From: Candidatus Roizmanbacteria bacterium
GTDB lineage: Bacteria; Patescibacteriota; Microgenomatia; UBA1406; GWC2-37-13
NCBI GenBank assembly: GCA_037130495.1
Contig: JBAXSX010000003.1
Span: 13,793 to 77,792, forward strand
DNA length: 64,000 bases
Direction of reading: 5' to 3'
Shown here: positions 3,355 through 64,000 of the stretch, one piece after another
Layout of the letters: every line of letters starts with the position of its first letter
Numbering within the stretch: position 1 is the first letter of the stretch
Made by a program: the position numbers and the translations under genes
Notes under the pieces: generated by a model
What the model was told of the DNA's origin: nothing
Seen by the model: the letters and a program-made list of their open reading frames with translations, nothing else
Databases searched by the model: none

Positions 3355-3927
3355 CTAGCTCTTTTCGTGTAGGAAATCAGCAAACTGACCAAGTCTTTTT
3401 TCCTCTTCGAGAACGTTCATGAGTGACGAAAGGGGTATTTTATTCCCTCGCACAATCTCAAAGGCAATCTCTGGAACAACCATCGAGACCTTGATACCTT
3501 GCTCTGCGAGGCCATGCACCAAAGTTTCATAGACTCTTTTATTCGCAGCAACAAGCAAATGACCTCCATTTGATCTCAATGGTACATATTTTGTTGAGAC
3601 GTCAGTGGGGGAGAAAGGAAGTGTTTGAAGGAATGTATTTTTAAGACGTATTTCCTCCTCAGCGTTTGATGGGAAGACGCTCATTTCGAAAGTAATTTTG
3701 GTCGAGAGTACCAGAGTCAGCGGACCTTTCATATCATGCGCACTCACAAAAGTGGCGAGGACACTTTTCAATAAGTCAGGATCAACGACTTCGAGATGGT
3801 GTATGGCTTGGGTGGGGATGGCGACCTGAGGAGGTTGCTCGTGATTATCGCTACTACATATACTGAGTGATTGTCTATCGACGTAGATCAATGTTTTTTT
3901 TGATGATAAAGCGTCAAGTAGTGACAT
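3355..3927 (-). CDS. Hypothetical protein, PilM N-terminal-half-like
   Basis: Last gene of the pilus array. The segment EEEIRLKNTFLQTLPFSPTDVSTKYVPLRSNGGHLLVAANKRVYETLVHGLAEQGIKVSMVVPEIAFEI resembles the PilM pattern, but the protein is only ~190 aa. ATG at 3927 (3957 is TTG). Confidence 0.35.
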   Translation of the reverse strand: MSLLDALSSKKTLIYVDRQSLSICSSDNHEQPPQVAIPTQAIHHLEVVDPDLLKSVLATFVSAHDMKGPLTLVLSTKITFEMSVFPSNAEEEIRLKNTFLQTLPFSPTDVSTKYVPLRSNGGHLLVAANKRVYETLVHGLAEQGIKVSMVVPEIAFEIVRGNKIPLSSLMNVLEEEKRLGQFADFLHEKS

Positions 3928-3969
3928 TGGATCAGTATAGTATATAACGCCCCCCAAAGGGGCCGAAGA

Positions 3970-4461
3970 TCATCTGGATGCTGAAATATTAGTTGTACCT
4001 TCGGTGCCACATGCCCTAACTGTGATGATGTTATTTGCATCAACGATGACAGAATATCCAGTCTTGGCACTTGTATATGTCGTATCACCAATGGGGTCAA
4101 TAGGGATAGACTTTAAATATTTTACCAATGGTGTGGAAAGATTCACACATGCCGTTGCGACAACAGTGCATCCTCCCGTTGAGATGGCGCAACCAGACCC
4201 ACCTGTGCCGAGTTGTGTCTCAGACATTCCTGTTGTGAGTCCCGTTGGCAGTGAGCCCTTGTTATCGACGATGTACTGATGAATAGAAGTGAGGATAGTA
4301 TCGACGTCGGCAGTTCTATTGGAGTCTTTTGCCTCACGCATTCGCTTTCCTGGATCGAGGGCGGTATATACCACAGTAGAGAGTATGCCAAGTAGCGCGA
4401 TTACGAGAAGCACCTCGATCAACGTGAAACCAGACGACTTGTCTCTTTGGGTATATATCAT
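3970..4461 (-). CDS. Type IV pilin-like protein (prepilin N-terminal methylation motif)
   Basis: N-terminus [24 protein letters not shown]: G|FTLIE with Glu+5 and a hydrophobic helix. Confidence 0.8.
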   Translation of the reverse strand: MIYTQRDKSSGFTLIEVLLVIALLGILSTVVYTALDPGKRMREAKDSNRTADVDTILTSIHQYIVDNKGSLPTGLTTGMSETQLGTGGSGCAISTGGCTVVATACVNLSTPLVKYLKSIPIDPIGDTTYTSAKTGYSVIVDANNIITVRACGTEGTTNISASR

Positions 4462-4509
4462 ATCTCTGATTAAGACTACTTATAAATGATTTGCTTGTCA
4501 AGTCGGCCA

Positions 4510-4989
4510 TCACAGTGATAAAGATAATTCACTTGTTCCTTCTGAACCACACGCTTTCACGGTTACCACATCAGATACTATTTTCACCGAATAATTTGTT
4601 TTTGCATTGCTTCCTGTTTTGAGATCTTTCGGAAAGACAGTCAGATACTTTGCCAATGTTGTGGACAAGTCCAAGCAGGCATTTTCTAGAACATCACACC
4701 CTCTGTTTAGATTTACACAACCAGAAACCGAGTATCCGATCTGTTTCTCTGCTGGACTGAGTCCTGGTGGTATAGCCCCATTGTTTTCAATCGCGTACTC
4801 ATGAATGGCACTGAGAATCGTTTTGAGATCTGCCATCCGAGCAACATCATCTGCCTGAGCAAAACGACGGGGTATATCAATTGCGATTATGAGAAGGCTA
4901 GATAAAATAGCTAATATACTAAAAACGACAAGTAATTCAAACAGTGTGAAACCGCGCTGTTTACCGCGGGTATTTATATCTCCTTCCAT
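4510..4989 (-). CDS. Type IV pilin-like protein
   Basis: N-terminus QRGFTLFELLVVFSILAILSSLL. The C-terminal half resembles 3970..4461 (paralog). Confidence 0.8.
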   Translation of the reverse strand: MEGDINTRGKQRGFTLFELLVVFSILAILSSLLIIAIDIPRRFAQADDVARMADLKTILSAIHEYAIENNGAIPPGLSPAEKQIGYSVSGCVNLNRGCDVLENACLDLSTTLAKYLTVFPKDLKTGSNAKTNYSVKIVSDVVTVKACGSEGTSELSLSL

Positions 4990-5360
4990 GATGTGATAAT
5001 AATATTGGATCCTCGCGTTGCTATTGTTTGAATAGTTCTTTTGTATAGTGTTGTAATACCAGTTGCTGTGACGGTATATACATTAACAGCTTGCGAGACA
5101 GTAATCGTGCATGTTCCCTCAGGTCGAGTTATCGAACCTCCAGAGTATCCTGCATTTGCTTTGATTTTCAGCAATGCATCTTCCATACATCCTTCAACAA
5201 AAGTTAGTTGCTCTTCTCCTTTGTACGTTGCGAGGGCTGATTGCCCCTGGCCTATAGAGAGATATATCACTGTTATGGTGATTGATAAAACGACGACCGA
5301 TACGATCAGCACACTGGTAAGTGCGATAAAGCCTTTTTGAAAATTTGAGTATACTTTCAT
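4974..5360 (-). CDS. Minor pilin-like protein (PilX-like, no Glu+5)
   Basis: N-terminus QKGFIALTSVLIVSVVVLSITITV, a hydrophobic pilin-type helix lacking the Glu at +5. Embedded in the pilin array. Confidence 0.5.
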   Translation of the reverse strand: MKVYSNFQKGFIALTSVLIVSVVVLSITITVIYLSIGQGQSALATYKGEEQLTFVEGCMEDALLKIKANAGYSGGSITRPEGTCTITVSQAVNVYTVTATGITTLYKRTIQTIATRGSNIIITSWKEI

Positions 5361-5386
5361 GATTGTTGTTTGTAATATCTGACTTA

Positions 5387-5881
5387 TCAGTTACTCCTCA
5401 ATTCGGCATCGCCTCTGATCGATGTCGACTCAACGTACTCTTGAGCGACTGTATTGTAATTGCTATCTAGAGTGAAACTAAATTGGATATTTTTTGTTTT
5501 ATTATCTAGGGATGAATAGTTGGTGAATGTCAGACTAGACACATTCGTATCGGTCGAATTTATGTTAATTGCAGCAGATGCCCCGTATTTGACCCTAATT
5601 TTACCGCCCGACAAATCGATCACAGTAGGATTTTGGGCACCATTAGTACTTGCGAGGGAAATACTGTTAGAGGCAACAGAGTTGACTCCAGAAGCATTCC
5701 TGATTTCGTATTTAATACGTTCAGAGGCATATCGTGCTGCAGAAAAAACTTCTTGTTCGGTTGCCGATTTGGCACCGGATCCAATGATACGCCACGCGAA
5801 AAGCACGAGAGCCCCCATGACAGTTGTGACAATAGCGAGGTACAAGACAAGCTCGATGAATGTAAAACCTTTGTGTTTCAT
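5387..5881 (-). CDS. Type IV pilin-like protein
   Basis: N-terminus HKGFTFIELVLYLAIVTTVMGAL. Confidence 0.8.
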   Translation of the reverse strand: MKHKGFTFIELVLYLAIVTTVMGALVLFAWRIIGSGAKSATEQEVFSAARYASERIKYEIRNASGVNSVASNSISLASTNGAQNPTVIDLSGGKIRVKYGASAAININSTDTNVSSLTFTNYSSLDNKTKNIQFSFTLDSNYNTVAQEYVESTSIRGDAELRSN

Positions 5882-5882
5882 A

Positions 5883-7682
5883 TTAGTTTCTCCAATAAGC
5901 GAAAGAAAATGGACTATTGATTGATTGGGGCAAAGTCACCTCAAGGGCCGTGACATCCGAATTCGTCCAGGTGAATACTGGCGTAGCCGTCATCACCAAT
6001 CTTTTTCCGAACAAGTCATTGGAGCCATCAGATACATTAAACATCATCTGATCAGTATTTAAGGGGTTCATCTGGAGACTGTAGTAGCCGTTTGGATTAT
6101 TTGGTTGAGGGGCGGCGGCGGCATCTGCTTGCTTTGTAAACGTGGCGCCATTTCCGACAAACCAGTCTATATTGTTGGACCCCTGGTCAGCATATACCAC
6201 GATTGAGCGTGTAGTCCCTCCCGAGATGAGCCATCCAGTAGATACTAGATGTGATCCAGCAACTGGAGAGTTGCTGGATGTGTCAGCGCTCGCCGTATCT
6301 GTCCATGTTGAGCCGCTCCAATATCCAATCTGCAAATCATTCTGTCCTCTTCCAATAGAAGCGAAAACTATCTCATCGGTATTTGGATTGGCAGAAATAT
6401 CGAGATTAGTTGCATCGTCGACAAATGTTGGAGGTGTGATGACGATGCCCCATGTGCATACTGCTGTTCCGCCAGTACATGTCCGATATCTCACCCCATT
6501 TGTTCCTGGTCCAACTGATGTTCCCCATACAAACATAACATCTCCTGACAATGATTCATACTCAACATCAAAAGCTTCGGAGTCAGATTGCGCGCCGGAT
6601 ATAACATCTACATTTGTTTCTGAGGCAGCACCTGGTTCATTTGCCCATGATGTGCCGTTCCATACGGCAGTCGACAAGTCGCGAGCATTGTCAGCCCATA
6701 TTGCGGTTATTAAGTTGGATGATGACCTGCGGTCCCATGCCATCTTTATCCACTGTACTATTCCAGATGTTCGTAGGGGAGTTATGTTCGTGGCAGCGCT
6801 CCAATTCGCGGCACCGCAGCCACTACTTGAGGATTTAGTACGAAATGCCATTTCGTTTGAACCTGATGCATTGGTGCTATATAAAACAATTGCTTTGCCC
6901 GAGCTAGTTTCATATGCGATGTCGAATCTTCTCGTATTTGCATTTCCGCCTACACTCGCACTCCATTCAGTACTCCAGTTCGTTCCATCATAACAAAGTA
7001 TGTTTAGGGTGCCAGTACTTGTGGCATATCCTGCAATAGCCTCTGTTTTGGTTGGTGAAGTTCTTAGTATGTAGCTTGCTCCACTGGAGCCACTGGGCGC
7101 AGAACTTTCTGCACTATACGCATTGGTTGTGGTATTGAATGCTCTATATTTCGGGATGATGCTCCCATCACCATATATCACGAGTGCATTTCCCAATAGA
7201 GAAGCGGCCGATCGATAGTCAGTGAGATATGTGCCAAAAACAACAGTTTCAGGAAGAGGAGAGCTAGAGTTCCATGAAACAGTTGAGATTACCTTTTTTG
7301 AAGAGGGATCAACTGAGCCACCGCTCGAGACAATATTCCCACTTCCATCACGCTGAACATCTCCAACCGTCAAAACTCTTGTGTATTTGTTGCTGGGTCC
7401 ATATTGATTATTTGCGCCAGAAAATGTCCATACGCCACTCGATTGAGCAGCTCCTGTCCCAGCAGTATTCACTAGATTTGAATACCCCTGATTACGTATT
7501 GACCGCATTGCCTCTACACCCTCAGAAGCGAACTGAGTCGCGATAGTCAACTCTTCTGCACGTCGATTAGATCCAAACCCACCAATCACAGCTTGAGCTA
7601 TTCCGGTAGCAAAAAGGATGAAGACAGCAGAAGCGATGACAATCTCAATCACTGATATGCCCTCGCTGTTATGAATTCTCAT
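5883..7682 (-). CDS. Large (599 aa) pilin-like protein, putative tip/adhesin subunit
   Basis: N-terminus SEGISVIEIVIASAVFILFATGIA (G|ISVIE, Glu+5), followed by a long Ser/Thr/Gly/Trp-rich, beta-type region. ATGA overlap with the upstream pseudopilin gene. Confidence 0.65.
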   Translation of the reverse strand: MRIHNSEGISVIEIVIASAVFILFATGIAQAVIGGFGSNRRAEELTIATQFASEGVEAMRSIRNQGYSNLVNTAGTGAAQSSGVWTFSGANNQYGPSNKYTRVLTVGDVQRDGSGNIVSSGGSVDPSSKKVISTVSWNSSSPLPETVVFGTYLTDYRSAASLLGNALVIYGDGSIIPKYRAFNTTTNAYSAESSAPSGSSGASYILRTSPTKTEAIAGYATSTGTLNILCYDGTNWSTEWSASVGGNANTRRFDIAYETSSGKAIVLYSTNASGSNEMAFRTKSSSSGCGAANWSAATNITPLRTSGIVQWIKMAWDRRSSSNLITAIWADNARDLSTAVWNGTSWANEPGAASETNVDVISGAQSDSEAFDVEYESLSGDVMFVWGTSVGPGTNGVRYRTCTGGTAVCTWGIVITPPTFVDDATNLDISANPNTDEIVFASIGRGQNDLQIGYWSGSTWTDTASADTSSNSPVAGSHLVSTGWLISGGTTRSIVVYADQGSNNIDWFVGNGATFTKQADAAAAPQPNNPNGYYSLQMNPLNTDQMMFNVSDGSNDLFGKRLVMTATPVFTWTNSDVTALEVTLPQSINSPFSFAYWRN

Positions 7683-8122
7683 CTGTTTATGACTCCTTGA
7701 GAATTGATGACAAGTACTTTATCGTTTCCACCTCCGGATATGTTTATTGTTGGTGCACTATCAGGCAAACCAGTCGCTTTCGCGAAAGTAACAGTCGTTA
7801 GACCGGTTACGAGTACTGGCGGATCAACCGGAAAAGTCTCATCAAATGCGCTCGATGATGACGAAAAGAGTGTGAGGCTTGTTCCAACCAACTTAACTCC
7901 CCAACTCGAGTTGTTCTTGCCCATCATGGCGTACATTTGGGCCTTGTGCATCTGCTCGGTGATTTGATCAGAAATATTCGAGACAGCATTTTGATTGATG
8001 AATCGAGAATAAAATACCCCCGATATAGAACCGATTATTAAGACGATGGACATCGTCAAAATCAGCTCAATGAGCGTGAATCCTGATCGAAAGTTTCTTG
8101 AAGAGTATGAAGTATGGACCAT
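7679..8122 (-). CDS. GspH/FimT-like pseudopilin
   Basis: N-terminus RSGFTLIELILTMSIVLIIGSI; 147 aa; 1 nt after pilC. Confidence 0.75.
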   Translation of the reverse strand: MVHTSYSSRNFRSGFTLIELILTMSIVLIIGSISGVFYSRFINQNAVSNISDQITEQMHKAQMYAMMGKNNSSWGVKLVGTSLTLFSSSSSAFDETFPVDPPVLVTGLTTVTFAKATGLPDSAPTINISGGGNDKVLVINSQGVINR

Positions 8123-8123
8123 A

Positions 8124-9200
8124 CTACCGCTTTATGCTTCCGGTAAATTGGTAGATAGGGGATATGATAGCTATTGCCAAAAATGCTACGATCAGCCCTA
8201 CTACAAGCAATAGAATAGGTTCGAAAATAGTAGTAAGGTTTTTGGTCGTATTATCAACCTCATCTTCAAAGAAATCACCCAAATATGTAAAGGAATCGTT
8301 CAACTTTCCCGTTTTTTCTCCAACACTGATCATGCTGATGGCAATTGCTGGAAAATAGGCAAAATGATTACCATCAAGTACTTGAGTGATAGATTCTCCC
8401 TTTTCTACACCATCCAGGATGATAGATATTATTTTCCTATACTCGAGATTTGTTGTAGTTTCTATCTGTGTTGAGAGAGCTTGTGATATAGGCAGGCCAC
8501 TCGACAACATAATCCCCATGTTGCGACAAAATTGGCTCAACTCGACACTCTGGATAAAAAGACCGATATACGGGAGAGAAAGGGTGAATCTTTCCCATAC
8601 ATTTTTAATCCGGGGAATACCAACCAAATACTGAGCTAGGAGATAGAGAGCAAATATTCCTGTCATGATATAGATGCCAAAATCTTTCATGGTTTGTGCG
8701 AAGAAAAGTAAAATACGAGTAGAAAGCGGTATAACCACATCAAGAGACTTAAAAAGGGTGATGAGTCGTGGAAGTATAAATAGACTCGTTCCTCCGCCAA
8801 CGATCACGGCGGTAGCGATAACTATAGATGGATAGAGTGAAGCGCTGAAGACTTTCTTTTTAAAATCAGCGTCTTTTTTCAGGTGCACAGCAAGATATTC
8901 AAGGTTTTTTTCTAGATTTCCTGTTTCTTCTCCTACCTTGATCATATAGAGATAGAAGCTGTCGAAAACATCAGGGAAGCGAGCTAATGATCGCTCGAGA
9001 CGCTGACCATTCAGGACACTGTCGCTCAGAGAAGTTAGGATGCGCTTTAGATATGGACTCGACGTTTGTGCCTCAAGGGATGAAATCGCCTCGCTGATAG
9101 ATATGCCACTTTTCAACATCACCGAGAGGTGTTTGGTGAAAAAAACCTTATCTTGGAGACTTATAGTCCTCACGATGCCAAAAGATGTTGAGAGGTTCAT
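8124..9200 (-). CDS. pilC: Type IV pilus platform protein PilC (GspF family)
   Basis: 358-aa polytopic protein with a duplicated GspF-type cytoplasmic domain and 3 TM segments. Immediately downstream of pilB (2-nt gap). Confidence 0.9.
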   Translation of the reverse strand: MNLSTSFGIVRTISLQDKVFFTKHLSVMLKSGISISEAISSLEAQTSSPYLKRILTSLSDSVLNGQRLERSLARFPDVFDSFYLYMIKVGEETGNLEKNLEYLAVHLKKDADFKKKVFSASLYPSIVIATAVIVGGGTSLFILPRLITLFKSLDVVIPLSTRILLFFAQTMKDFGIYIMTGIFALYLLAQYLVGIPRIKNVWERFTLSLPYIGLFIQSVELSQFCRNMGIMLSSGLPISQALSTQIETTTNLEYRKIISIILDGVEKGESITQVLDGNHFAYFPAIAISMISVGEKTGKLNDSFTYLGDFFEDEVDNTTKNLTTIFEPILLLVVGLIVAFLAIAIISPIYQFTGSIKR

Positions 9201-33348: not shown

Positions 33349-33420
33349 CTCCCCGGCGAGGATTCGAACCTCGAACCTTGATGTTAACAGCATCCTGCTC
33401 TACCGTTGAGCTACCAGGGA
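33349..33420 (-). tRNA. tRNA-Asn (anticodon GUU)
   Basis: Minus strand reads TCCCTGG-TA-GCTC-AACGGTA-GAGC-A-GGATG-CTGTTAA-CATCA-AGGTT-CGAGG-TTCGAAT-CCTCG-CCGGGGA-G. It has U1-A72, G73, U33 and A37. One G27-A43 mismatch; no encoded CCA. Confidence 0.85.
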
Positions 33421-49873: not shown

Positions 49874-49943
49874 TTGCGGAGCTTGGAATTGAACCAAGTC
49901 TAGAAGATTATGAGCCTTCTGTGCTACCGTACACTACCCCGCA
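49874..49943 (-). tRNA. tRNA with anticodon CAU (elongator Met or Ile2; not initiator-like)
   Basis: Minus strand reads TGCGGGG-TA-GTGT-ACGGTA-GCAC-A-GAAGG-CTCATAA-TCTTC-TAGA-CTTGG-TTCAATT-CCAAG-CTCCGCA-A. There is no GGG/CCC run in the anticodon stem. Confidence 0.8.
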
Positions 49944-55571: not shown

Positions 55572-55995
55572 TGGACACTCTATCTAAAAGTTGGAACCAA
55601 TACGAAAACTACATTATGAAGTGGTATCCCGTACTACGTATAGGGCAAGATAAGGCAGTTCAATCTACTTCATACTTATCACATATGGGTATATAAACCA
55701 TATGAGCATTACACATATATCAGTATCTCCGCGAGATATAGGATATAAGTGGTAAAAGATAACAATCAAGAAATATGATGTATATCCCTCGCACAATTAC
55801 AAGATATTTAGGTAGGAATTGTGTAGATCGCTTGAAATGATATATTAAATGGGGTAGTATTAATGCAGATATAGTGTTGATTACAACCTATAGTAGAGGT
55901 ATAATTGATCAAAGAGTTAGTTTGAGGAGTGAAAGGGCAACGCCCTTCATAACACCATACGGCTAAAAACCTGAAGGTGTGAGGCACTTCTCAAA

Positions 55996-56409
55996 CTAGC
56001 TCTTTATTTTATTTACCTCCACATCCCGATCCATTATTGAGAGAAATGAACACTTGCCATATGTATCTTTCCTTATTATCACTATCACTTTCCTGTATCT
56101 TTGCCCCCCATTCAAGTTTATAACTTCTACAGATTCAATAGAAAAATCAGTGTAATTGTTTGTGCGACGTACATTCTGGAATGTTGTTGAGGTATCAATA
56201 ATTTTTTTAGCCAGCGGGAGCAACATAAGTCTTCGGAAAGTGTCGTCAACTGATCTTTGCTTGTGGCCATTGATACCCATCAAATGACTCCACCCATTTA
56301 AAGTTATAAAAACAAACTCTTTTAAAGCATTGCAGTAATATGGCGAGTCTTTTCGCCAAATGTTATAAATAATCCAAGACTTCTGTTTAAGTTGCGAAAG
56401 TTTTGACAT
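55996..56409 (-). CDS. Hypothetical protein (island)
   Basis: 137-aa ORF from ATG 56409 in a low-GC context. No motif recognised. Confidence 0.45.
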   Translation of the reverse strand: MSKLSQLKQKSWIIYNIWRKDSPYYCNALKEFVFITLNGWSHLMGINGHKQRSVDDTFRRLMLLPLAKKIIDTSTTFQNVRRTNNYTDFSIESVEVINLNGGQRYRKVIVIIRKDTYGKCSFLSIMDRDVEVNKIKS

Positions 56410-56662
56410 ATAAAAAAACGCCCTCTGCACAACCGCAAAATTATTGCGATCAAGCAAAAAGCGTTGTATATCTTTTCTTTTTGTCTTAGTTTATTTGTTG
56501 TGCACAACTACACATATTAACTGCATCATAGTACCACTTTTTGAGCTCAAAAGCAAGCAGAGTTGAAGACTAAGTGCTAAGGCGGGAATATCAGCAACGC
56601 TTCACAATAGTGTGCTAGCTCTGTATTTTGTTTATGCAAAATAGGCGTATAATATCCGTGTT

Positions 56663-57160
56663 ATGAGGAAAAACACGATAATCATTATCCTTGTGCTTGT
56701 TATTGTTTTAGGTGTTGTGTATTTAGTCAGGAAACCCCAGCTACTCGCAAGTGACAATAATTCAATAGCTTCCTATTCTGCCGAATATAGTCAACCGCTA
56801 AGTGAAGATATAATTAACTGTGAATTCAAAATTGTATCTGATTTTTCATTCACTAGCAAAGGAGAGGCAACAGGTAACCAAAATAGCAAGATCTATTATG
56901 GAACGAAAGAAAACAAGCCAATGCTCATTACATTCGCATCACTCACGTCAGATAAGCCCAAGATTAAAGGAAACAATGGCGATGGTCCCGTGTCCATACT
57001 AAATAATGATGACGAAACTATTACGATCGCAGAAAAAAATGATCTGGGCGATACATTTATTTATACTATCTTCAAAAAAGAAAAAGTAGCGACATGGTAT
57101 AAGGGCTACAAATTACTTACTACACCTTTTGGAATGCTCTCAATGGGGTATTGTTATTAA
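56663..57160 (+). CDS. Membrane-anchored/secreted hypothetical protein (island)
   Basis: N-terminal TM helix IIIILVLVIVLGVVYLV. One Cys near the N-terminus of the mature part and one at the C-terminus (GYCY). Confidence 0.5.
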   Translation: MRKNTIIIILVLVIVLGVVYLVRKPQLLASDNNSIASYSAEYSQPLSEDIINCEFKIVSDFSFTSKGEATGNQNSKIYYGTKENKPMLITFASLTSDKPKIKGNNGDGPVSILNNDDETITIAEKNDLGDTFIYTIFKKEKVATWYKGYKLLTTPFGMLSMGYCY

Positions 57161-57171
57161 CAAAATCAAAA

Positions 57172-57426
57172 ATGAAAATATCCACAACATCAATAATAGT
57201 TATAGCTATCGTTATTTTAGGAATTGCTTTTTATTGGTATGAATTAAGACCAGCACAAATAAGAACATGGTGTATTAATAAAGTTAGTGTAGATAAGCTT
57301 TACCGTACAACTGAAGCAGAGTCGAAAGAACTACAGGGTAATATGGTGAAAATCAATACTTTAGAAAGGGATAAATCTGACTTTTGGTACAAAGACTGTC
57401 TTCGAAACAAGGGAATAAAAGACTAA
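57172..57426 (+). CDS. Small membrane-anchored hypothetical protein (island)
   Basis: ATG 57172; TM helix SIIVIAIVILGIAFYWY. Confidence 0.4.
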   Translation: MKISTTSIIVIAIVILGIAFYWYELRPAQIRTWCINKVSVDKLYRTTEAESKELQGNMVKINTLERDKSDFWYKDCLRNKGIKD

Positions 57427-57570
57427 ATGTAATGCCCTATACACTGCACATCAAATAGATCAATGTGTCTACTATTAAAGATACCCAATTAAGTTTATAG
57501 ATTGGTTCATTCACGACTTAAGTGTGCATGAAGAAGATTGTAAAATAACCCTTGTCTAATTCCTTAATAC

Positions 57571-58068
57571 TTATTTACAACTCATGTAACTTGAGTCAGA
57601 GGTTGGGGCACCGTAGCCAGGAAACTCCGATCTTATTTTCGACCAAACTGCTAGACCATTGTCCTTATTTATGACGATACTATTCATTGAGTTGTCATTC
57701 CATAGAGCTGCCACCAGCTCCTTACTATCATTTTTTATGATTTGGAAATCCACCCCACCAGATTCCCCAGTATCAAATGATGCTCCTGATAAGAAAGTTA
57801 TCGTTTTATCATCTTTAATTTTGATAGATGCCTTATTAGTGCCTTTTCTAACTTCGTACTCAATCCCGTTTGTTAGGGACTCCTCCTTGCTTCCTGTGGC
57901 TGAAGAATCTATCAACGACTGACATGCAAAACTGGTGTTATTTGCGACTGATTCTGAATATGGAAAAGCAACCTTTACTTTTGTCTCCGCAGAAAATAGC
58001 TTGTAGAGTGTAATGCTCCCGATAATTAATAAGATAATTAGCACAGACCACATTGCTTTATTTTTCAT
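57571..58068 (-). CDS. Membrane-anchored/secreted hypothetical protein (island), distant paralog of 56663..57160
   Basis: Same length (165 aa), same N-terminal anchor and the same Cys placement (FACQS ... YMSCK). Confidence 0.5.
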   Translation of the reverse strand: MKNKAMWSVLIILLIIGSITLYKLFSAETKVKVAFPYSESVANNTSFACQSLIDSSATGSKEESLTNGIEYEVRKGTNKASIKIKDDKTITFLSGASFDTGESGGVDFQIIKNDSKELVAALWNDNSMNSIVINKDNGLAVWSKIRSEFPGYGAPTSDSSYMSCK

Positions 58069-58130
58069 AATTAGTCAACAATAGATAATTATTTGTATAT
58101 CACTTTTATTGTATCCCCAAAGGCATGCGC

Positions 58131-58634
58131 TTATTCGATGACTTTAGGATTTTTATGGATATATTCCCATGCCCACGGTTGCAAATTATAAGGCCAACTA
58201 TTTAAATCCGTGCCGATGCTAGATCCAGAATAAATAATTTTAGACAATTCCAAGCTTCCCACCACTCCACTTTCTTTATCAAGGTAAAGAGTTTTTGTCT
58301 CCTTTGAGATAAACTCTCTAATTATCGACTTCTCCTCTGGTGATAAATGGTCTAACTCCCTATAAAGATTTATATATTTTTCACGAATTTTAAATTTTCT
58401 ATATACCCACATATATAGTTTTATGAGTATGTCCGTAAGAAGTGATATCCCAGAGTATATGCACACTATTCCAACTATCCACCTGTAGTTTGTGACTGGA
58501 GAATCTAGAGCCACCAGGCCAAGAATATGTTGAGGTAAAAACAGTAGAAGCACAGAGACAGCAAATAACGAAATGAGATGCCTCGGTTTGAGTTTAATCC
58601 ACTCTAAGAAATTCTTGGTAAATTCAGAAAACAT
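58131..58634 (-). CDS. Superinfection exclusion protein B (SieB, PF14163)-like membrane protein
   Basis: Two N-terminal TM helices, then LSPEEKSIIREFISKETKTLYLDKESGVVGSLELSKIIY ... YNLQPWAWEYIHKNP. This matches my recollection of the SieB family pattern. Confidence 0.45.
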   Translation of the reverse strand: MFSEFTKNFLEWIKLKPRHLISLFAVSVLLLFLPQHILGLVALDSPVTNYRWIVGIVCIYSGISLLTDILIKLYMWVYRKFKIREKYINLYRELDHLSPEEKSIIREFISKETKTLYLDKESGVVGSLELSKIIYSGSSIGTDLNSWPYNLQPWAWEYIHKNPKVIE

Positions 58635-58746
58635 CTGTGGATATTATATAACTTTTATAACAAAGAGCTATCAATACAAAGCTAAACTCTTACCTTACAT
58701 CTCTACCCCTTTAAGACGATATTAAACGTTATGGTGTGTTATGCGA

Positions 58747-58752
58747 TATAAT
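58747..58752 (+). promoter_or_regulatory. Candidate -10 box (TATAAT) preceding the structured leader
   Basis: Perfect TATAAT about 15 nt before the first hairpin. Weak -35. Confidence 0.25.
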
Positions 58753-58764
58753 TCACATTAACAA

Positions 58765-58930
58765 ATCGGTTTACCTAACCCCAGTTATCGCAAGATATTG
58801 GGCAAGGTAATAAATTCCGCAAAGGAAGACGAGAGCTTCTCGTTCAGTAACCTTTGTGGGCCATATGAGGAAACTCATATGGGCGAAAGCCAAACTGGTG
58901 GGAAGCTTTTTTTGTATTCCACCAGCCTAG
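58765..58930 (+). ncRNA. Candidate structured RNA / 5' leader rich in GNRA-capped hairpins (class unknown)
   Basis: Hairpins: 58771..58810 (loop GCAA), 58815..58827 (GCAAA), 58828..58844, 58861..58882 (9 bp, GAAA), a mini-hairpin ggc-GAAA-gcc ending at 58891, and 58895..58925. GNRA loops appear only when read on the plus strand. Confidence 0.4.
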
Positions 58931-58986
58931 AAGCAAGGATTAACTATTGTTAAATTGCAATACAGGGGAGGTGAATACAAAGCAAT

Positions 58987-59562
58987 ATGTCTACAAAAAA
59001 ATGTAATAAGTGTCAAAAAGAAATTGATCAAAAAGCTACAAAATGTCCGTATTGCCAATCAGATCTAAGAAACTGGTTTAGGAGACACCCAATTATTACG
59101 ATTATTTTAGTTTTACTTACCATATTAATGTTCGGAGCCGCTGGTGAGAGTAAGAAGCCAACATCTAGCACTAGTTCAACTAATACCGACGATAATAAGC
59201 AGGCTAATATCCAAACAAATATAAAAGAAGAACAGTCTGCAACTGTACCAGCTGTGCCAGCTGAATATAAGTCCGCTTTAAATAAAGCAACTTCGTATGT
59301 CAACACAATGCATATGTCAAAAAAAGGCGTTTACGACCAGCTAGTATCAGAATATGCAGAAAAGTTTTCGCCAGAAGCCGCACAGTATGCGATAGATAAC
59401 GTTAAAGCTAACTGGAATGCAAATGCCCTAGCCAAAGCGAAGAATTATCAAGGCCAAATGAATATGTCGCCAGCAGCAATACGTGATCAGCTAGTATCAA
59501 GTTATGGTGAAAAGTTCACCGAAGCGGAGGCAGATTATGCGATTCAGAATCTTAATAAATAA
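58987..59562 (+). CDS. Ltp-like (host cell surface-exposed lipoprotein family) superinfection-exclusion-type protein with N-terminal zinc ribbon and TM helix
   Basis: CNKCQKE...CPYCQSD, a TM helix, then two Ltp-type repeats (YKSALNKATSYVNTMHMSKKGVYDQLVSEYAEKFSPEAAQYAIDNV and ALAKAKNYQGQMNMSPAAIRDQLVSSYGEKFTEAEADYAIQNL). Confidence 0.65.
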   Translation: MSTKKCNKCQKEIDQKATKCPYCQSDLRNWFRRHPIITIILVLLTILMFGAAGESKKPTSSTSSTNTDDNKQANIQTNIKEEQSATVPAVPAEYKSALNKATSYVNTMHMSKKGVYDQLVSEYAEKFSPEAAQYAIDNVKANWNANALAKAKNYQGQMNMSPAAIRDQLVSSYGEKFTEAEADYAIQNLNK

Positions 59563-59679
59563 ATGCGGTCTCACAGAATGTAAGAAAATTGTTTACATTT
59601 TTTCTGGGTGAAAATAACCTCATCAAGAATAAATCGATTGATCCGCTAAAAGCGGCCATTTTCTCGTATTCTTTTCTTT

Positions 59680-59740
59680 AGATCTCCTGTAGATCTCCTG
59701 TAGATCTCCTGTAGATCTCCTGTAGATCTCCTGTAGATCC
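59680..59740 (+). repeat. Perfect 11-bp tandem repeat, 5.5 copies (iteron-like)
   Basis: (agatctcctgt)x5 plus agatcc. Each unit contains a BglII-type palindrome, agatct. Confidence 0.95.
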
Positions 59741-59867
59741 AGTATATAGACTACCGTCTATTAGCTTTAGAATGTACGTGTAGTACATGAAAAAATTATA
59801 GTCCCACTTCGTTAAAACTACGCGGGACACATTTAGCAGATGAGTATACAACCTAGATAGTACTTAA

Positions 59868-59915
59868 CGGGTGGCCTGCCACGCGAAGCTCTCTACCGGC
59901 GGTAGAGAGCGAAGT
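59868..59915. repeat. Palindromic module (10-bp stem)
   Basis: gctctctacc-ggc-ggtagagagc (59888..59910), flanked by gcgaag on both sides. Confidence 0.75.
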
Positions 59916-60109
59916 GTGGACACTGTGACGAATAGTTGGAACGAGTTGGTAGATTACATATGGAAATGGTATCCAGCTACATCTAGCTTTAACTTTAGCC
60001 TGTCCAATCAATCATTATGAATATAGCCCATCCTCATTTATATCACATGAGTGATATAGAACTTAAGTTAATATTCAAAATCACTAATGAATTAGCGACT
60101 TTTTAATAT

Positions 60110-60688
60110 ATGTCGGAAACGCAAACTGAAGATAACAGAAATAGTGAAGTATTAGGAGGTCCTAAAACTGAAGAAGGAAAGCGTGTCTCCAAATACAATG
60201 CCACAACGCATGGGATTTTGAAGTTTTCCTTAACGACTTATGAATCAGATATTTTAAAAGTTTACCTTGACCAATTTATGGCTGAATTTGCTCCTGTAGG
60301 AGCTCTGGAGACATTATTGACCGAAAGAGCAACGATGTACTATGTCAAGCTCTTTAGAGTAGCCAAATCAGAAAATGAATATATGCGCGCTATCCTTGAA
60401 CCGAGAGTTGTCAAATACTCGAATCCACTTCTGGCAGTCTCGCTCGAAGGAGACGAAACAGTGATAAATGAGGGATATTTTGCCAAAATTACGCAAGAGC
60501 ATGTAAAAGAATTGGCGAATACTTTCCAACGATACGAGGTTACACTCGAAAATAGATTTTACAAAACACTTCATGAGCTCGAGCGTCTTCAACGTGCCAG
60601 GAAAGGCGAGATCGTTTCCCCACCTATGAGCGTAGAAATTACAAATTTAGGAAGTTCGTTTGGTAGAAATAATAATTTAACAGATTGA
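60110..60688 (+). CDS. Hypothetical protein (widespread GPKTxEGK...NAxxHG family, function unknown)
   Basis: N-terminal GGPKTEEGKRVSKYNATTHGIL and a later APVGALETLLTERATMYYVKLFR. I recognise the pattern from many hypothetical proteins. Confidence 0.55.
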   Translation: MSETQTEDNRNSEVLGGPKTEEGKRVSKYNATTHGILKFSLTTYESDILKVYLDQFMAEFAPVGALETLLTERATMYYVKLFRVAKSENEYMRAILEPRVVKYSNPLLAVSLEGDETVINEGYFAKITQEHVKELANTFQRYEVTLENRFYKTLHELERLQRARKGEIVSPPMSVEITNLGSSFGRNNNLTD

Positions 60689-60689
60689 T

Positions 60690-61070
60690 ATGGAAAAACA
60701 AATAATCGATGAATTTTTAATTAAACTTTTAAAGAGAGCATATGAGCGTAAAATATCATGCTATCTCGCACACATTGACATCGAGGTTATTAAGCCAATT
60801 TGTCAGATTACTTATGTATCCGAAGCATTTAGGAGATACTTTGAAGAAAAGATAAAAGATGTGCTTAGTCCACCAACCGTATTGGTTTACCAGAAGGGGT
60901 CCATTTTTATTGCTTCAGATGACCTTAATACGCTTTTTCTTTACCGAGAGAAAAAATACAAACGTATTCCATGTGTGGTTTTAGGAATGCCCTTAGGAAG
61001 ACATGTTCTTGCTAAAAGTAAACCTTTTTATTTGCCCCATCCTATACCCGAATTCATTTCTACAAAATAA
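60690..61070 (+). CDS. Hypothetical protein, weak ParB/Srx-like N-terminal-domain pattern
   Basis: Starts 1 nt after the previous stop. IDIEVIKPI...PPTVLVYQKGSIFIASDDLNTLFLYREKKYKRIPCVVLG loosely follows the ParB-N pattern but lacks the DGHHR motif. Confidence 0.45.
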   Translation: MEKQIIDEFLIKLLKRAYERKISCYLAHIDIEVIKPICQITYVSEAFRRYFEEKIKDVLSPPTVLVYQKGSIFIASDDLNTLFLYREKKYKRIPCVVLGMPLGRHVLAKSKPFYLPHPIPEFISTK

Positions 61071-61156
61071 TCATGTCAATATTTTACTTAATAGATGGGT
61101 TTTGCAATCCGCATGATTTGCTGACTAGCAAAAACTACTTTTTTGGTCTATTTCAC

Positions 61157-61867
61157 TCAACATGCCATAACTTTCGCTATAGACTGAGCACTTATTCTCT
61201 TTGTCTCGTTTATTTCCTCATTTAGTTTCGTCATTTCCGAAGTAATCTTATCTTTGGTAGGTTTATGTGGTTTCCAACATAATCTACAAACACCCAAAAG
61301 CCCCGGTTTATCCTTTTGTATTTTGATTCGTATCAAGCAAAGGAGTGATTTGGTCTCATTATCTTTTTCTAGAACCACCTTAATTAGTGATTCCATATTG
61401 CCGATCAAGTTCTGAGCGTTAGCTTTGATAGTTACTTCGTTCCCCTTGTCGCTCATTACCACCTCTCGAAGAATATCGGTTGCTTTATTTGCTGTCTCAA
61501 AGTCATTATTGAGTGCATTAATTGAATCCCTATAGTCGAAATACTTATTTATTAAATCTAGATCGAGAAATGACAGCTCAATATCTTCCACCAATCGATA
61601 ATTCCGTAATATGTTGTAGGTCATTGCCCCAGCACTCAAAGTGGTCATTGAACCATGCATCAAAAATATGTTTTTCGAGGATACGTTTAAGTGCTCGTTT
61701 AGAACCCCTTCAAGCTTAACCATGGCATTGTAATCTTTGTTCTGTCTTTCAACCCATTTTGTCCAGTAGTATGTAACCAATCCAAACATGAATGCAAAAA
61801 ATGCACCAAAGAAAGCCCCTGAGGTCTCACCTATTATTTTCAAAGTTGCAGAATCTGTTGCGTTCAT
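61157..61867 (-). CDS. Hypothetical single-TM protein (island)
   Basis: N-terminal TM helix GAFFGAFFAFMFGLVTYYW followed by a ~200-aa helical region. Confidence 0.5.
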   Translation of the reverse strand: MNATDSATLKIIGETSGAFFGAFFAFMFGLVTYYWTKWVERQNKDYNAMVKLEGVLNEHLNVSSKNIFLMHGSMTTLSAGAMTYNILRNYRLVEDIELSFLDLDLINKYFDYRDSINALNNDFETANKATDILREVVMSDKGNEVTIKANAQNLIGNMESLIKVVLEKDNETKSLLCLIRIKIQKDKPGLLGVCRLCWKPHKPTKDKITSEMTKLNEEINETKRISAQSIAKVMAC

Positions 61868-62028
61868 ATTATATTATTCTTCAACTTCCAACCTATTACG
61901 CATTGTATAAAGTGTCTAAACTCCAAACATTCAGAAAATCTTTCCCTGCGTATATGCAAAAGAAGACTATTGTTACGAGGAGCAACATTTCGCCAGATGT
62001 TATGATAAATTCCCCAATAATAGGCCGC

Positions 62029-62286
62029 TCACACCTTTTCAAATGTCTTTCTAAATTCTTCAATGATCTCATCACCTTTAAGAGGTGGATTAGGGTCATA
62101 TTTCTCAACAATTCGATATGCTGTTAAGAGTCCATTGAAAAAATCCTCACTCCCACCTTGAAAGATTTCTCCATTAGGCCCATTCATCGCACGGACTATT
62201 GCACTCTCAATTGTGATGATTACTTCTTGAACAATCTTTTCTTTTTCAGTTAGTTCCCTTTTAATTGCACCTCTGTCATCTAACAT
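62029..62286 (-). CDS. Hypothetical small protein (island)
   Basis: 85-aa ORF with an ATG start. No motif recognised. Confidence 0.4.
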   Translation of the reverse strand: MLDDRGAIKRELTEKEKIVQEVIITIESAIVRAMNGPNGEIFQGGSEDFFNGLLTAYRIVEKYDPNPPLKGDEIIEEFRKTFEKV

Positions 62287-62381
62287 ATATAAATGGAAAA
62301 GTTATAAACATATACGCTTCATTCTTTCATTAACATACCCTTTTAACTCTCGGATTTGGGCTTGTGTGTTTGGCACGACCT

Positions 62382-64000
62382 TCAATCATTCAGTTCTCCA
62401 ATAAACTGGTTCAGCTTCTTCATTTCAACTTCTTTATCTTGGAACCAATTTGTTGACCAAATACGATATATAACAAAGCCCATTTTTTCTAACTCTTTTT
62501 GCCTATACATATCGTGAGCATAAGCCTCTTCAGATTGGTGATATGCCTTCCCATCACATTCGAGCACTATGTCTTTGTTATTAGCTTTGATAACAAAATC
62601 CAATCTAAACCCTCCCACTTTATGTTGCTGGATAATACTATCTTTTGGATAGTATTTTATTAGCATGTCATAAACCTCTTCTTCAAATGGAGACTCTGAA
62701 AGACCGTCTAAATTGGACATAACCCTAGGTTTTTCATAGCTTTGAGTTTTTAGACAACTAAGAATGCTATTTGCCAGTTCAGAGTTATTGTTTGATATGG
62801 CTTCTGCATATGCTAGGTATGCATATAGAATTCCTTTTTTATTATTACCTTCATTCTTAATAATCTCTGAATACGTGAGGTAACTTTCCTTAGGAATTGA
62901 GGTGCATACATATAACTTGTGCTTTGCTCTAGTTATGAGTACGTTAAGAAGCTTGTATCCCTCTATTCTATTAAGACGTGCGAAGTTTTGTGAAAAAGTG
63001 CCATCTGGCTTGATACCATAGGTTGTTGAAATAATGATTATATCTTTTTCATCACCTTGGATATTTTCAAGATTTTTAACAAATAAACCATTTTTTCTCA
63101 ACTCTTGCAATTTATTTGCAAACTCCTCATCATTCTCTGCTACTTCATTCAAAGACTCGGTAATTAGGTTTCTCTGATTTATATTAAATGTTGCGATACC
63201 TATAGATGGATACTTCCCTTTATTATTAGTATGTATCTCGTCTCTTATGATCTTGATTATCTCTGCTACTTCAGAGGGATTGGTTCTGGACTCATACCTA
63301 CCATTTACCGCTCGAAACTCGATCGGTTTGTATACCTCACGTGCAGGAAAAGCCACTAAATTTCCACCATAAAATGCATTGTTTGAAAAATCAATTAATG
63401 CAGGATGATTTGATCTATAGTGAAAATCCAGATATGACTTATTAACATTTGTTAGATCGGTGGCAAATTGTAGAAGCGATTCACTCTCCGCCAGTATTGA
63501 CTGTTCATCTTCTTCGTCAAAAACTGACTCATCCTCGTTCTCCGTGCTATCAAGAGTTTCATTTATAGTCTGGAAATAGCTTGATGGCGGCATTTGATGC
63601 TCGTCACCGGCAATTACTTTATACTGAACTCGTATCAGACTTGTGAAAGTGTCCGACACTCTTAATTGACTTGCTTCGTCAAATATCACTATATTAAATA
63701 TTCCCTTTTCTAGTGGAAAGATTGCGTTTACCGCAACTGGATTAGTTAGAATTACTGGAAATAAAGTTGTGAATAAGTCGAAATCCTTTGCAATGATCCT
63801 TCTAAGCGAATTTTTAGGCCCTGAGTTATTCTTTCTTAGATTGTAAAGGGTGTTAAAGTTGTATGTTACTCGTGATGACTTTACCATTCTTTTTTGGCCC
63901 CATATTGACCCAATCTGTTTGATTTGTTGTTTACTAAGGTCTTCATATAGCGCAGAGAGGCTTTGTAGCCTAGTATCGGATTTATGGAAACCTACACTCG
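62382..64000 (-). CDS. SF1 (Upf1/DNA2-like, AAA_11/AAA_12) helicase fused to a C-terminal DUF559/Vsr-like endonuclease domain; N-terminus lies beyond the window
   Basis: Motif II FDEASQL, GDEHQMPP, NIQGDEKDIIIISTTYG and VLITRAK. The C-terminus GFRLDFVI...VLECDGKAYHQSEEAYAHDMYRQKELEKMGFVIYRIWSTNWF is DUF559-type. The frame stays open upstream of the track's Met through to position 64000. Confidence 0.85.
   Translation of the reverse strand, partial: SVGFHKSDTRLQSLSALYEDLSKQQIKQIGSIWGQKRMVKSSRVTYNFNTLYNLRKNNSGPKNSLRRIIAKDFDLFTTLFPVILTNPVAVNAIFPLEKGIFNIVIFDEASQLRVSDTFTSLIRVQYKVIAGDEHQMPPSSYFQTINETLDSTENEDESVFDEEDEQSILAESESLLQFATDLTNVNKSYLDFHYRSNHPALIDFSNNAFYGGNLVAFPAREVYKPIEFRAVNGRYESRTNPSEVAEIIKIIRDEIHTNNKGKYPSIGIATFNINQRNLITESLNEVAENDEEFANKLQELRKNGLFVKNLENIQGDEKDIIIISTTYGIKPDGTFSQNFARLNRIEGYKLLNVLITRAKHKLYVCTSIPKESYLTYSEIIKNEGNNKKGILYAYLAYAEAISNNNSELANSILSCLKTQSYEKPRVMSNLDGLSESPFEEEVYDMLIKYYPKDSIIQQHKVGGFRLDFVIKANNKDIVLECDGKAYHQSEEAYAHDMYRQKELEKMGFVIYRIWSTNWFQDKEVEMKKLNQFIGELND

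Follow-up and report, generated by a model that had tools for sequence, protein, structure and literature searches.

The DNA analysed here, called the window below, is a 64,000-nt stretch of a Candidatus Roizmanbacteria genome (assembly GCA_037130495.1, contig JBAXSX010000003.1, positions 13,793 to 77,792 of the forward strand). Between two divergent genes, one for a SieB-family protein and one for an Ltp-like protein, it carries a copy of the LOOT RNA (Rfam family RF03000). We propose that this RNA is a cis-acting, two-state, attenuator-like leader of the Ltp-like gene. Judged from comparative sequence data, and with the family assignment included, this reading has a probability of roughly 0.55. 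It draws on a conserved pseudoknot helix that lies beyond the Rfam model and leads into a U-run, a competing hairpin made from the same bases, a promoter-like box placed upstream of the RNA, and strands near the start codon that change together with the RNA. Coordinates are those of the window unless a contig is named.

Family assignment and core helices

The original prediction, made from the letters of the DNA, described positions 58765-58930 as a candidate structured RNA of a novel class, folded by eye into five or six hairpins (H1 to H4, a mini-hairpin and H6), three or four of them with GNRA loops. Infernal cmscan against Rfam 15 matches 58772-58891 of the plus strand to RF03000 over the whole model (model positions 1-121 of 121), with 61.5 bits against a gathering cut-off of 46.4 and an E-value of 4e-9 for the whole window. 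The match covers the full model and exceeds the curated cut-off. A real RNA is therefore present, but it does not represent a new class. The segment belongs to the LOOT RNA family, and there is hardly any room for doubt about this. The other Rfam families that came up here at E<=10 were sub-threshold chance matches (trpB, 17.5 bits against 59; IMES-2, 13 against 54.7; and snoU85). No model of a known riboswitch or ribozyme class matched, ZTP and twister among them, in agreement with the earlier view that the RNA is not a GEMM, TPP or T-box element.

The plus strand of 58765-58930 folds with a minimum free energy (MFE) of -67.9 kcal/mol (z = -7.38), which none of 200 dinucleotide shuffles equalled. 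The minus strand folds less strongly (z = -5.08). The GNRA loops had been read on the plus strand only, and this is so; the Rfam match is likewise confined to that strand. The checks named in the prediction included a comparison with shuffled sequence, an Infernal search of Rfam, and a collection of homologues examined for covariation. The shuffles came out in its favour and the other two were decisive. A conserved plus-strand RNA with GNRA-capped helices was correctly seen, as fold, homologues and covariation all indicate.

LOOT comes from the ZWD alignments of Weinberg and Breaker, published in the 2017 study of '224 candidate structured RNAs' (PMC5737381). The family was pictured, and imported into Rfam 14 (PMC7779021), its structure was touched up using R-scape in Rfam 15 (PMC11701678), and it has been remarked on for its many cross-covariations (PMC7657543). 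We found no assignment of a function in the literature, and LOOT has been an orphan since 2017. The present copy does not differ in kind from the published motif. It shares the helices P1 to P4, the conserved loop sequences and the type of host (Patescibacteria, or candidate phyla radiation, CPR, with tiny genomes known through metagenomes), and it is peculiar in its low score, its 3-bp P4 and an atypical CAAGG sequence. It is the single copy in a 1.2-Mb genome that is 94% complete.

The comparisons below use 40, and then 70, LOOT loci with their flanks from across the phylum (the present locus and 69 relatives). They were aligned with MAFFT without reference to a structure. In the 70-locus set the alignment of P2a and P4 is poor.

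The core as in RF03000 consists of P1, P2, P3 and P4. P1 (58772-58809, apical loop GCAA) is the H1 of the original prediction, and its two parts, P1a and P1b, are paired in 92-95% of the alignment cells, with compensatory changes, in both alignments. P2 (58817-58859) is closed by P2a (58817-25 with 58851-59) and ends in the apical hairpin P2b (58829-34 with 58838-43), which is H3. The hairpin H2 (ttcc-GCAAA-ggaa) is rejected: its bases form the 5′ strand of P2a in both the MFE fold and the Rfam alignment, and P2a is also backed by covariation. P3 (58862-58881) is H4. It is paired in 95-97% of the cells and shows compensatory changes in 8 of 8 pairs in both alignments; its loop at 58870-73 reads GAAA in all 70 loci, and a ninth pair, C58861-G58882, is possible. 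P4 (58882-58891, placed by the Rfam alignment) is the ggc-GAAA-gcc mini-hairpin that had been read by eye. Here it spans 3 bp, and most relatives have a longer one. In the 40-locus alignment 88% of its cells are paired, with compensatory changes; in the 70-locus MAFFT set it is misaligned.

The most conserved bases of LOOT are the tetraloop, a receptor-like loop and an A-rich joiner. The receptor-like loop is the internal loop of P1, which reads CCUAA(A/C)...(C/U)AUGG across the loci and is formed here by CCUAAC (58774-79) and CAAGG (58803-07). An 11-nt receptor for GAAA tetraloops, CCUAAG...UAUGG, was reportedly described by Costa and Michel in 1995. LOOT has both a similar P1 loop and a GAAA loop on P3. 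It differs from that receptor at the closing position, with A..C or C..GU instead of G.U, and the present copy carries CAAGG as the 3′ part, one base away from the usual (C/U)AUGG. The resemblance of the P1 loop to a receptor, together with the GAAA of P3, suggests a docking contact, and it is likely that the P3 loop docks into P1. A closing helix in which the 14-nt 5′ leader, with its conserved AACAAUU, would pair to the linker, the tail or the U-run was considered and rejected, as cognate combinations performed no better than non-cognate ones (p = 0.79 and 0.74).

The P5 pseudoknot and its competitor

In all loci P4 is followed by a conserved tail (consensus CUGGCGGGGAGC), which reads CTGGTGGGAAGC at 58895-906 of the present copy. 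RNAalifold, unaided, paired this tail with the loop and the 3′ half of the P2 apical hairpin. The resulting helix, P5, has 14 bp, in which 58833-44 and 58846-47 pair with 58895-908. Its 5′ strand is called T here (58832-58847, with C58845 bulged) and its 3′ strand B (58895-58908); B is also the 5′ arm of H6. P5 crosses P2a, and the structure is therefore a pseudoknot. The Rfam model stops at 58891, at the end of P4, so P5 cannot be part of it, and the conserved tail and the U-run described below lie outside it as well.

In the alignments of 40 and 70 loci, P5 is paired in 94-96% of the cells and 13-14 of its 14 pairs show compensatory changes. None of 500 shuffles matched the observed values, and control helices slid along the alignment were paired in 34-56%. 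Every one of the 70 loci has 10 bp or more of P5, with a mean of -21 kcal/mol, and the duplex of the present copy has -15 to -16 kcal/mol, where duplex energies serve as an approximation to pseudoknot energetics. G-U wobbles are conserved in P5, with UG in 46 and 52 of the 70 cells at two positions. With so many of the conserved pairs being G-U, the plus strand is fixed as the RNA.

Directly 3′ of P5 stands a terminator-like U-run (58907-58913), which is also found in the loop of H6. On average the 8 nt past the tail contain 5.9 T, and 64 of the 70 loci have at least 5 T there. As in intrinsic terminators, a stable GC-rich helix, whose 3′ strand ends at 58906-08, leads straight into a U-run, and upstream A/G are able to pair with the first U's. 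Unlike in a simple terminator hairpin, the two strands are about 48-60 nt apart: the apical loop of P2, some 60 nt upstream, supplies the 5′ strand of a helix that encloses P3 and P4 and crosses P2a. A consensus terminator scan found no simple plus-strand terminator hairpin at the locus, and its only match there was the H3 palindrome, read on the minus strand.

The T strand also belongs to the local hairpin P2b, which has -7.1 kcal/mol in the present copy. P2b and P5 use the same bases and are therefore mutually exclusive. A local hairpin is found in 63 of the 70 loci (mean z = -2.1) and comes in at least three sequence designs, every one of which overlaps the T strand. On this comparative evidence, two mutually exclusive structures are both maintained. 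The hairpins seen by eye have thus fared unevenly. H3 can form, but the columns of the type found here are paired in only 59% of the relatives, and its bases pair with the tail in P5. H6 recurs in about a third to a half of the loci, but its 5′ arm is the conserved partner in P5. All six are real possibilities of the sequence, and two of them are not conserved pairings.

Placement, downstream genes and distribution

A perfect TATAAT box is present within 60 nt upstream of LOOT in 30 of 70 loci, at a median spacing of 19 nt, compared with 2 of 68 control windows. In the present locus it was read in the sequence at 58747-58752 (plus strand), 19 nt before the start of the LOOT model. Taking the first in-frame start codon as the start of an open reading frame (ORF), the next ORF is co-oriented with LOOT in 65 of 68 loci and the upstream gene in 29 of 69 (Fisher test, 2e-12), and a median of 59 nt separates the model end from the first start codon. 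In the spacer between the U-run and the ORF, a perfect TATAAT occurs in only one of 44 loci, against 17 of 44 windows of equal length upstream of LOOT. These counts indicate that LOOT heads a transcription unit whose promoter precedes LOOT instead of lying in the spacer before the gene. The combination of an upstream -10 box, a co-oriented gene and a spacer almost free of promoter boxes marks a 5′ leader and not a free-standing small RNA (sRNA) gene. Riboswitches occupy the same kind of place, a same-strand 5′ leader with the promoter box upstream. A canonical arrangement, with a -35 box in front and a simple plus-strand terminator hairpin behind, was tried and rejected, the consensus scans giving neither; for the promoter this refers to a scan for the two-hexamer sigma-70 consensus, which found no -35 box at the LOOT locus.

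A segment that follows the tail may connect the present RNA to its gene. This segment, X or B′ (58911-58925, plus strand; 3′ arm of H6 at 58917-25), can pair with the tail B or with the Shine-Dalgarno (SD) sequence and spacer of the Ltp-like gene. The translation initiation region (TIR) of that gene spans 58965-58989, with the SD sequence GGGGAGG at 58965-71, the spacer GGUGAAUACAAA at 58970-81 and the ATG at 58987, 15 nt from GGGGAGG. In the X:SD pairing, 58911-19 pairs with 58973-81 (UUUGUAUUC:GAAUACAAA) and 58921-23 with 58970-72, for a total of -18.5 kcal/mol. This strength is reached by 1.1% of shuffles and by 0.36% of the 24-nt windows across the 64 kb, and the MFE fold of the full leader chooses the pairing. 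In a comparison over 32 loci, X:TIR duplexes were stronger for cognate than for non-cognate partners (p = 2e-4, with some of the windows overlapping). The competing hairpin H6, or B:B′, has -14.6 to -14.8 kcal/mol here (z = -2.2). Among the 70 loci B:B′ has z<-1.5 in 31 and z<-2 in 22, and in divergent loci B′ changes along with B. The platform proposed for the present locus is a B′:SD mask in front of an Ltp-type gene. Another LOOT locus, L061, from a different family of the phylum, precedes a 63%-identical homologue of this Ltp gene; there the sequence after the tail is different (UUUAUGUUUCU) and matches AGAAACAUGAA, which covers the start codon of that same locus.

Another kind of link is seen in some 15-17 of 69 loci, about a quarter. 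In these, an exact direct copy of 9-17 nt of the P2a 5′ strand lies over the ribosome-binding site (RBS) or the start codon, 38-53 nt past the model end (L041, L042, L046, L047, L051, L058, L063, L070, L002, L025, L028, L029 and L037). A match of at least 9 nt was found in 16 of 69 loci and in one of 69 upstream controls, and the comparison of cognate with non-cognate pairs gave p = 3e-5. The P2a strand is hypervariable and its copy differs from locus to locus. Such exact copies at the RBS show LOOT helices evolving in concert with the start site of the gene behind them. None of the sampled loci has both a P2a copy and a B′:SD mask, and the copy appears to be used instead of the mask in this sample. 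An 'address' mechanism of this type, in which the P2a 3′ strand would pair with the P2a copy at the RBS, is rejected for the present locus, where only a 6-nt match, ACAAAG, exists (z = -0.6).

The genes downstream of LOOT are of many kinds. They encode zinc-ribbon membrane proteins, DUF4352/DUF5067 proteins, type III/II DNA methyltransferases and Ltp, as well as HsdR, Mrr, PD-(D/E)XK and DUF2726 nucleases and SNase proteins. An N-terminal hydrophobic segment is present in 47 of 65 of the proteins. A PADLOC scan of them added nothing to the type III/II methyltransferases already seen with Pfam. No metabolic theme is common to these genes, and no ligand candidate emerges from them.

Among close relatives, 15 of 61 have an RF03000 match above the cut-off. 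The count is 51 of 223 genomes in the same order, and 76 of 401 in an even sample of the phylum. LOOT-bearing genomes measure 0.6-1.8 Mb and have 1-4 copies each. In the own genus only 2 of 11 genomes have LOOT, and the distribution is therefore patchy. A scan of 185,579 species genomes with an exact pattern matched more than 120 records, nearly all of them named as Patescibacteria/CPR groups. Matches in Sphingomonas, Prosthecochloris, Bryobacteraceae, Prolixibacteraceae and Blastomonas, and in two of four IMG/VR contigs, were set aside as chance. True LOOTs are also present in records titled Pacearchaeota, Nanoarchaeia, Gammaproteobacteria, Pseudomonadales and Bdellovibrionales (loci with non-CPR titles: L126, L105, L148, L099, L150, L080, L108, L090, L083, L076 and L082), and four genomes of such records that were checked are of about 1 Mb. 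An occurrence of LOOT in archaea was considered and rejected. A complete tmRNA of bacterial type is present in the 'Pacearchaeota' genome, and titles of this kind therefore look like wrong labels on CPR bacteria; the 'Nanoarchaeia' genome is fragmentary.

Two IMG/VR contigs (L071, 2916-7071, and L073, 5281-7981) hold true LOOTs in the usual leader position. One of these precedes a 352-aa protein of unknown function that adjoins a large terminase subunit and a reverse transcriptase, and the other heads a type I HsdM-HsdS operon. The earlier mention of phage-associated noncoding RNAs is borne out to this extent, but LOOT heads accessory, defence and surface-protein genes of CPR bacteria. The IMG/VR contigs also yielded unrelated RNAs. 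Contig L072 (IMGVR_UViG_3300032282_004241, 3460-8208), whose LOOT pattern match is due to chance, has at least 14 tRNA genes on one strand and a group I intron (RF00028, 63.5 bits) at 4758-5040. A type II hammerhead ribozyme (RF02276, 46.5 bits against 37), unrelated to LOOT, lies at 8351-8421 on the minus strand of L074.

In the window itself, the divergent intergenic gap spans 58635-58986 (352 nt). Its length, the hairpin coordinates, TATAAT at 58747 and the presence of GGGGAGG, all given in the original prediction, are correct on re-reading, and the two neighbours had been named correctly. The SieB-family protein is encoded at 58131-58634 on the minus strand (Pfam PF14163, 8.2e-26) and as a divergent neighbour provides context only. 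The Ltp-like gene, of superinfection-exclusion type, occupies 58987-59562 on the plus strand and encodes 191 aa, with PF07553 matching in two stretches (2.3e-46). The protein consists of an N-terminal zinc ribbon (weak Pfam matches to Zn_ribbon_3 and DZR), one transmembrane segment and two Ltp repeats.

SieB, LOOT and the Ltp gene lie in an accessory island of low GC content (55700-64000 of the window). A tmRNA gene (68.5 bits) lies at 83257-83693 of the contig, about 5.5 kb past the window end, so the island sits between smpB and ssrA. The ssrA gene is a classic integration site of islands. The remaining Rfam matches in the window are two tRNA genes on the minus strand (33349-33420 and 49874-49943).

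A proposed two-state leader and its alternatives

The proposed mechanism involves four strands: T (58832-47), B (58895-908), B′/X (58911-25) and the SD region (58965-81). If T paired with B, the GC-rich P5 and the U-run would stop RNA polymerase. B′/X would then be free and, in read-through RNA, would mask the SD, and the Ltp-like gene would be off. If T were kept in P2b, B would pair with B′ in H6, no terminator helix would form, the SD would be free and the gene would be on. During transcription P2b would form first, and its exposed loop could be a toehold for the tail; the decision may therefore be kinetic. The balance could be tipped by a ligand, a protein, Mg2+ or temperature, or by folding kinetics. 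Exclusive structures of the kind expected in a riboswitch are visible in sequence and covariation, namely P2b against P5, and B:B′ against T:B and X:SD.

The chain T:B, B:B′, B′:SD resembles the 1:2, 2:3 and 3:4 pairings of trp-type attenuators. LOOT differs from them in having no leader peptide, and its last strand is a mask of the SD, not a second terminator. There are also parallels with compact riboswitches such as c-di-GMP-I/GEMM-I, ZTP and fluoride. Like these, LOOT has a promoter-proximal domain followed by an expression platform, combines a GNRA tetraloop with a receptor-like internal loop, has a pseudoknot that would be coupled to the expression decision, and stands before very heterogeneous genes, many of them for membrane or secreted proteins. 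It differs in that it matches none of those Rfam families and shows no evident conserved binding pocket, in its patchy distribution and apparent link to mobile elements, and in that its pseudoknot helix would itself be the terminator stem instead of preventing one.

Several observations weigh against a two-state leader at the present locus. No conserved unpaired pocket of the kind seen in ligand aptamers is evident in LOOT. The geometry of P5 is not that of a canonical intrinsic terminator, and termination by it is a prediction. The X:SD pairing is partly generic, since any SD rich in purines can be bound by a B′ rich in pyrimidines, and the windows of the X:TIR comparison overlap in part. The B:B′ hairpin is missing or weak in about half of the loci. 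The P2a-copy platform of other loci is absent here, and its on/off logic is not obviously alike. Finally, the present copy is the weakest-scoring member in its order and has the lowest score above the cut-off among close relatives, and its CAAGG is unique among the 70 loci, the other 69 having (C/U)AUGG or CACGG. Together with the 3-bp P4, this suggests that it may be a weakened copy.

Rfam types RF03000 as 'Gene; sRNA', which also speaks against a leader, whereas the placement data of this analysis point to one. LOOT could accordingly be a stand-alone, trans-acting sRNA of about 150 nt that runs from the -10 box to P5 and the U-run, with the gene behind it independent or reached by leak-through. 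We consider this unlikely, and still the view has several points in its favour: a promoter-like box of its own, a strong 3′ helix with a U-run, a compact fold whose invariant tetraloop and receptor-like loop recall RNAs working as discrete particles, and a few loci in which the next ORF is more than 300 nt away. In the loci with a P2a copy, the P2a 3′ strand could even be an antisense seed on the neighbouring mRNA. It accounts poorly for the close, co-oriented next gene and for the near absence of a -10 box between LOOT and the gene. Moreover, B′, the P2a copy at the RBS and the X:TIR pairing all co-vary with LOOT from beyond the supposed 3′ end, and a transcript that always stops at the U-run would have no need of them. 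LOOT might also be a structural leader that never switches, a compact 5′ domain carried along with mobile cargo genes. It might be a fixed attenuator or insulator, a stabiliser against RNases or a protein handle, and its alternative pairings might be folding intermediates or by-products of purine- and pyrimidine-rich strands. The lack of an obvious ligand pocket, conserved bases that mostly belong to tertiary-contact motifs, the very diverse cargo, a presence in some 19-25% of genomes that is as patchy as that of mobile elements, and the complementarity by composition of B, B′, T and SD are all in keeping with such a leader. We nevertheless judge it distinctly improbable. The competitor hairpin kept over the T strand in its several designs, the tracking of B by B′ in divergent loci, and the exact copies of a hypervariable P2a strand at the RBS would be costly to keep unless the alternative state mattered.

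Processing of the RNA is a very remote prospect. LOOT would in that case be a self-cleaving ribozyme or an RNase target, in which a cut separates P1 and the P2a 5′ strand from the rest and frees an anti-RBS strand. This would account for the P2a copy at the RBS in some loci, and the compact pseudoknot with its contact of the tetraloop-receptor kind would suit it. The patchy occurrence and the link to mobile elements, at up to 3-4 copies in a genome, recall several small ribozyme classes. However, no Rfam ribozyme matched at E<=10, there are no invariant unpaired core nucleotides besides the tetraloop and receptor, and nothing in the data indicates a cleavage site. The density of inverted repeats would also fit a site that acts as DNA, such as a recombination or attachment site, an operator cluster or an origin-like repeat, and this we regard as scarcely credible. 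Read from the opposite strand, the conserved G-U wobbles become C-A mismatches, and duplex DNA would have no use for them; both the Rfam match and the GNRA loops are confined to one strand, and the covariation preserves pairing, not sequence.

For the present locus alone, the outcome is deflationary: an ordinary annotation of a catalogued family. For LOOT as a whole, comparative evidence is nearly all there is, since CPR bacteria are uncultured. The pseudoknot, the competing hairpin, the promoter-proximal position and the co-varying masks turn an 'orphan sRNA' into a concrete, testable model of a two-state leader. More tentatively, LOOT may possibly be, instead of a free sRNA, the sensor core of Patescibacteria-wide two-state leaders with a built-in pseudoknot terminator, through which a shared signal gates the cargo of mobile islands. 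If so, a metabolite or second messenger, a factor from a host or phage, or folding kinetics could play that part. The gated cargo would span superinfection-exclusion proteins like Ltp, restriction-modification methylases, nucleases and many surface proteins, with co-evolving masks tying every copy to the gene behind it, B′:SD here and the P2a copy elsewhere. The two-state leader model itself, if right, would give the accessory, defence and surface genes of CPR bacteria their first described regulatory logic, together with an unusual terminator architecture.

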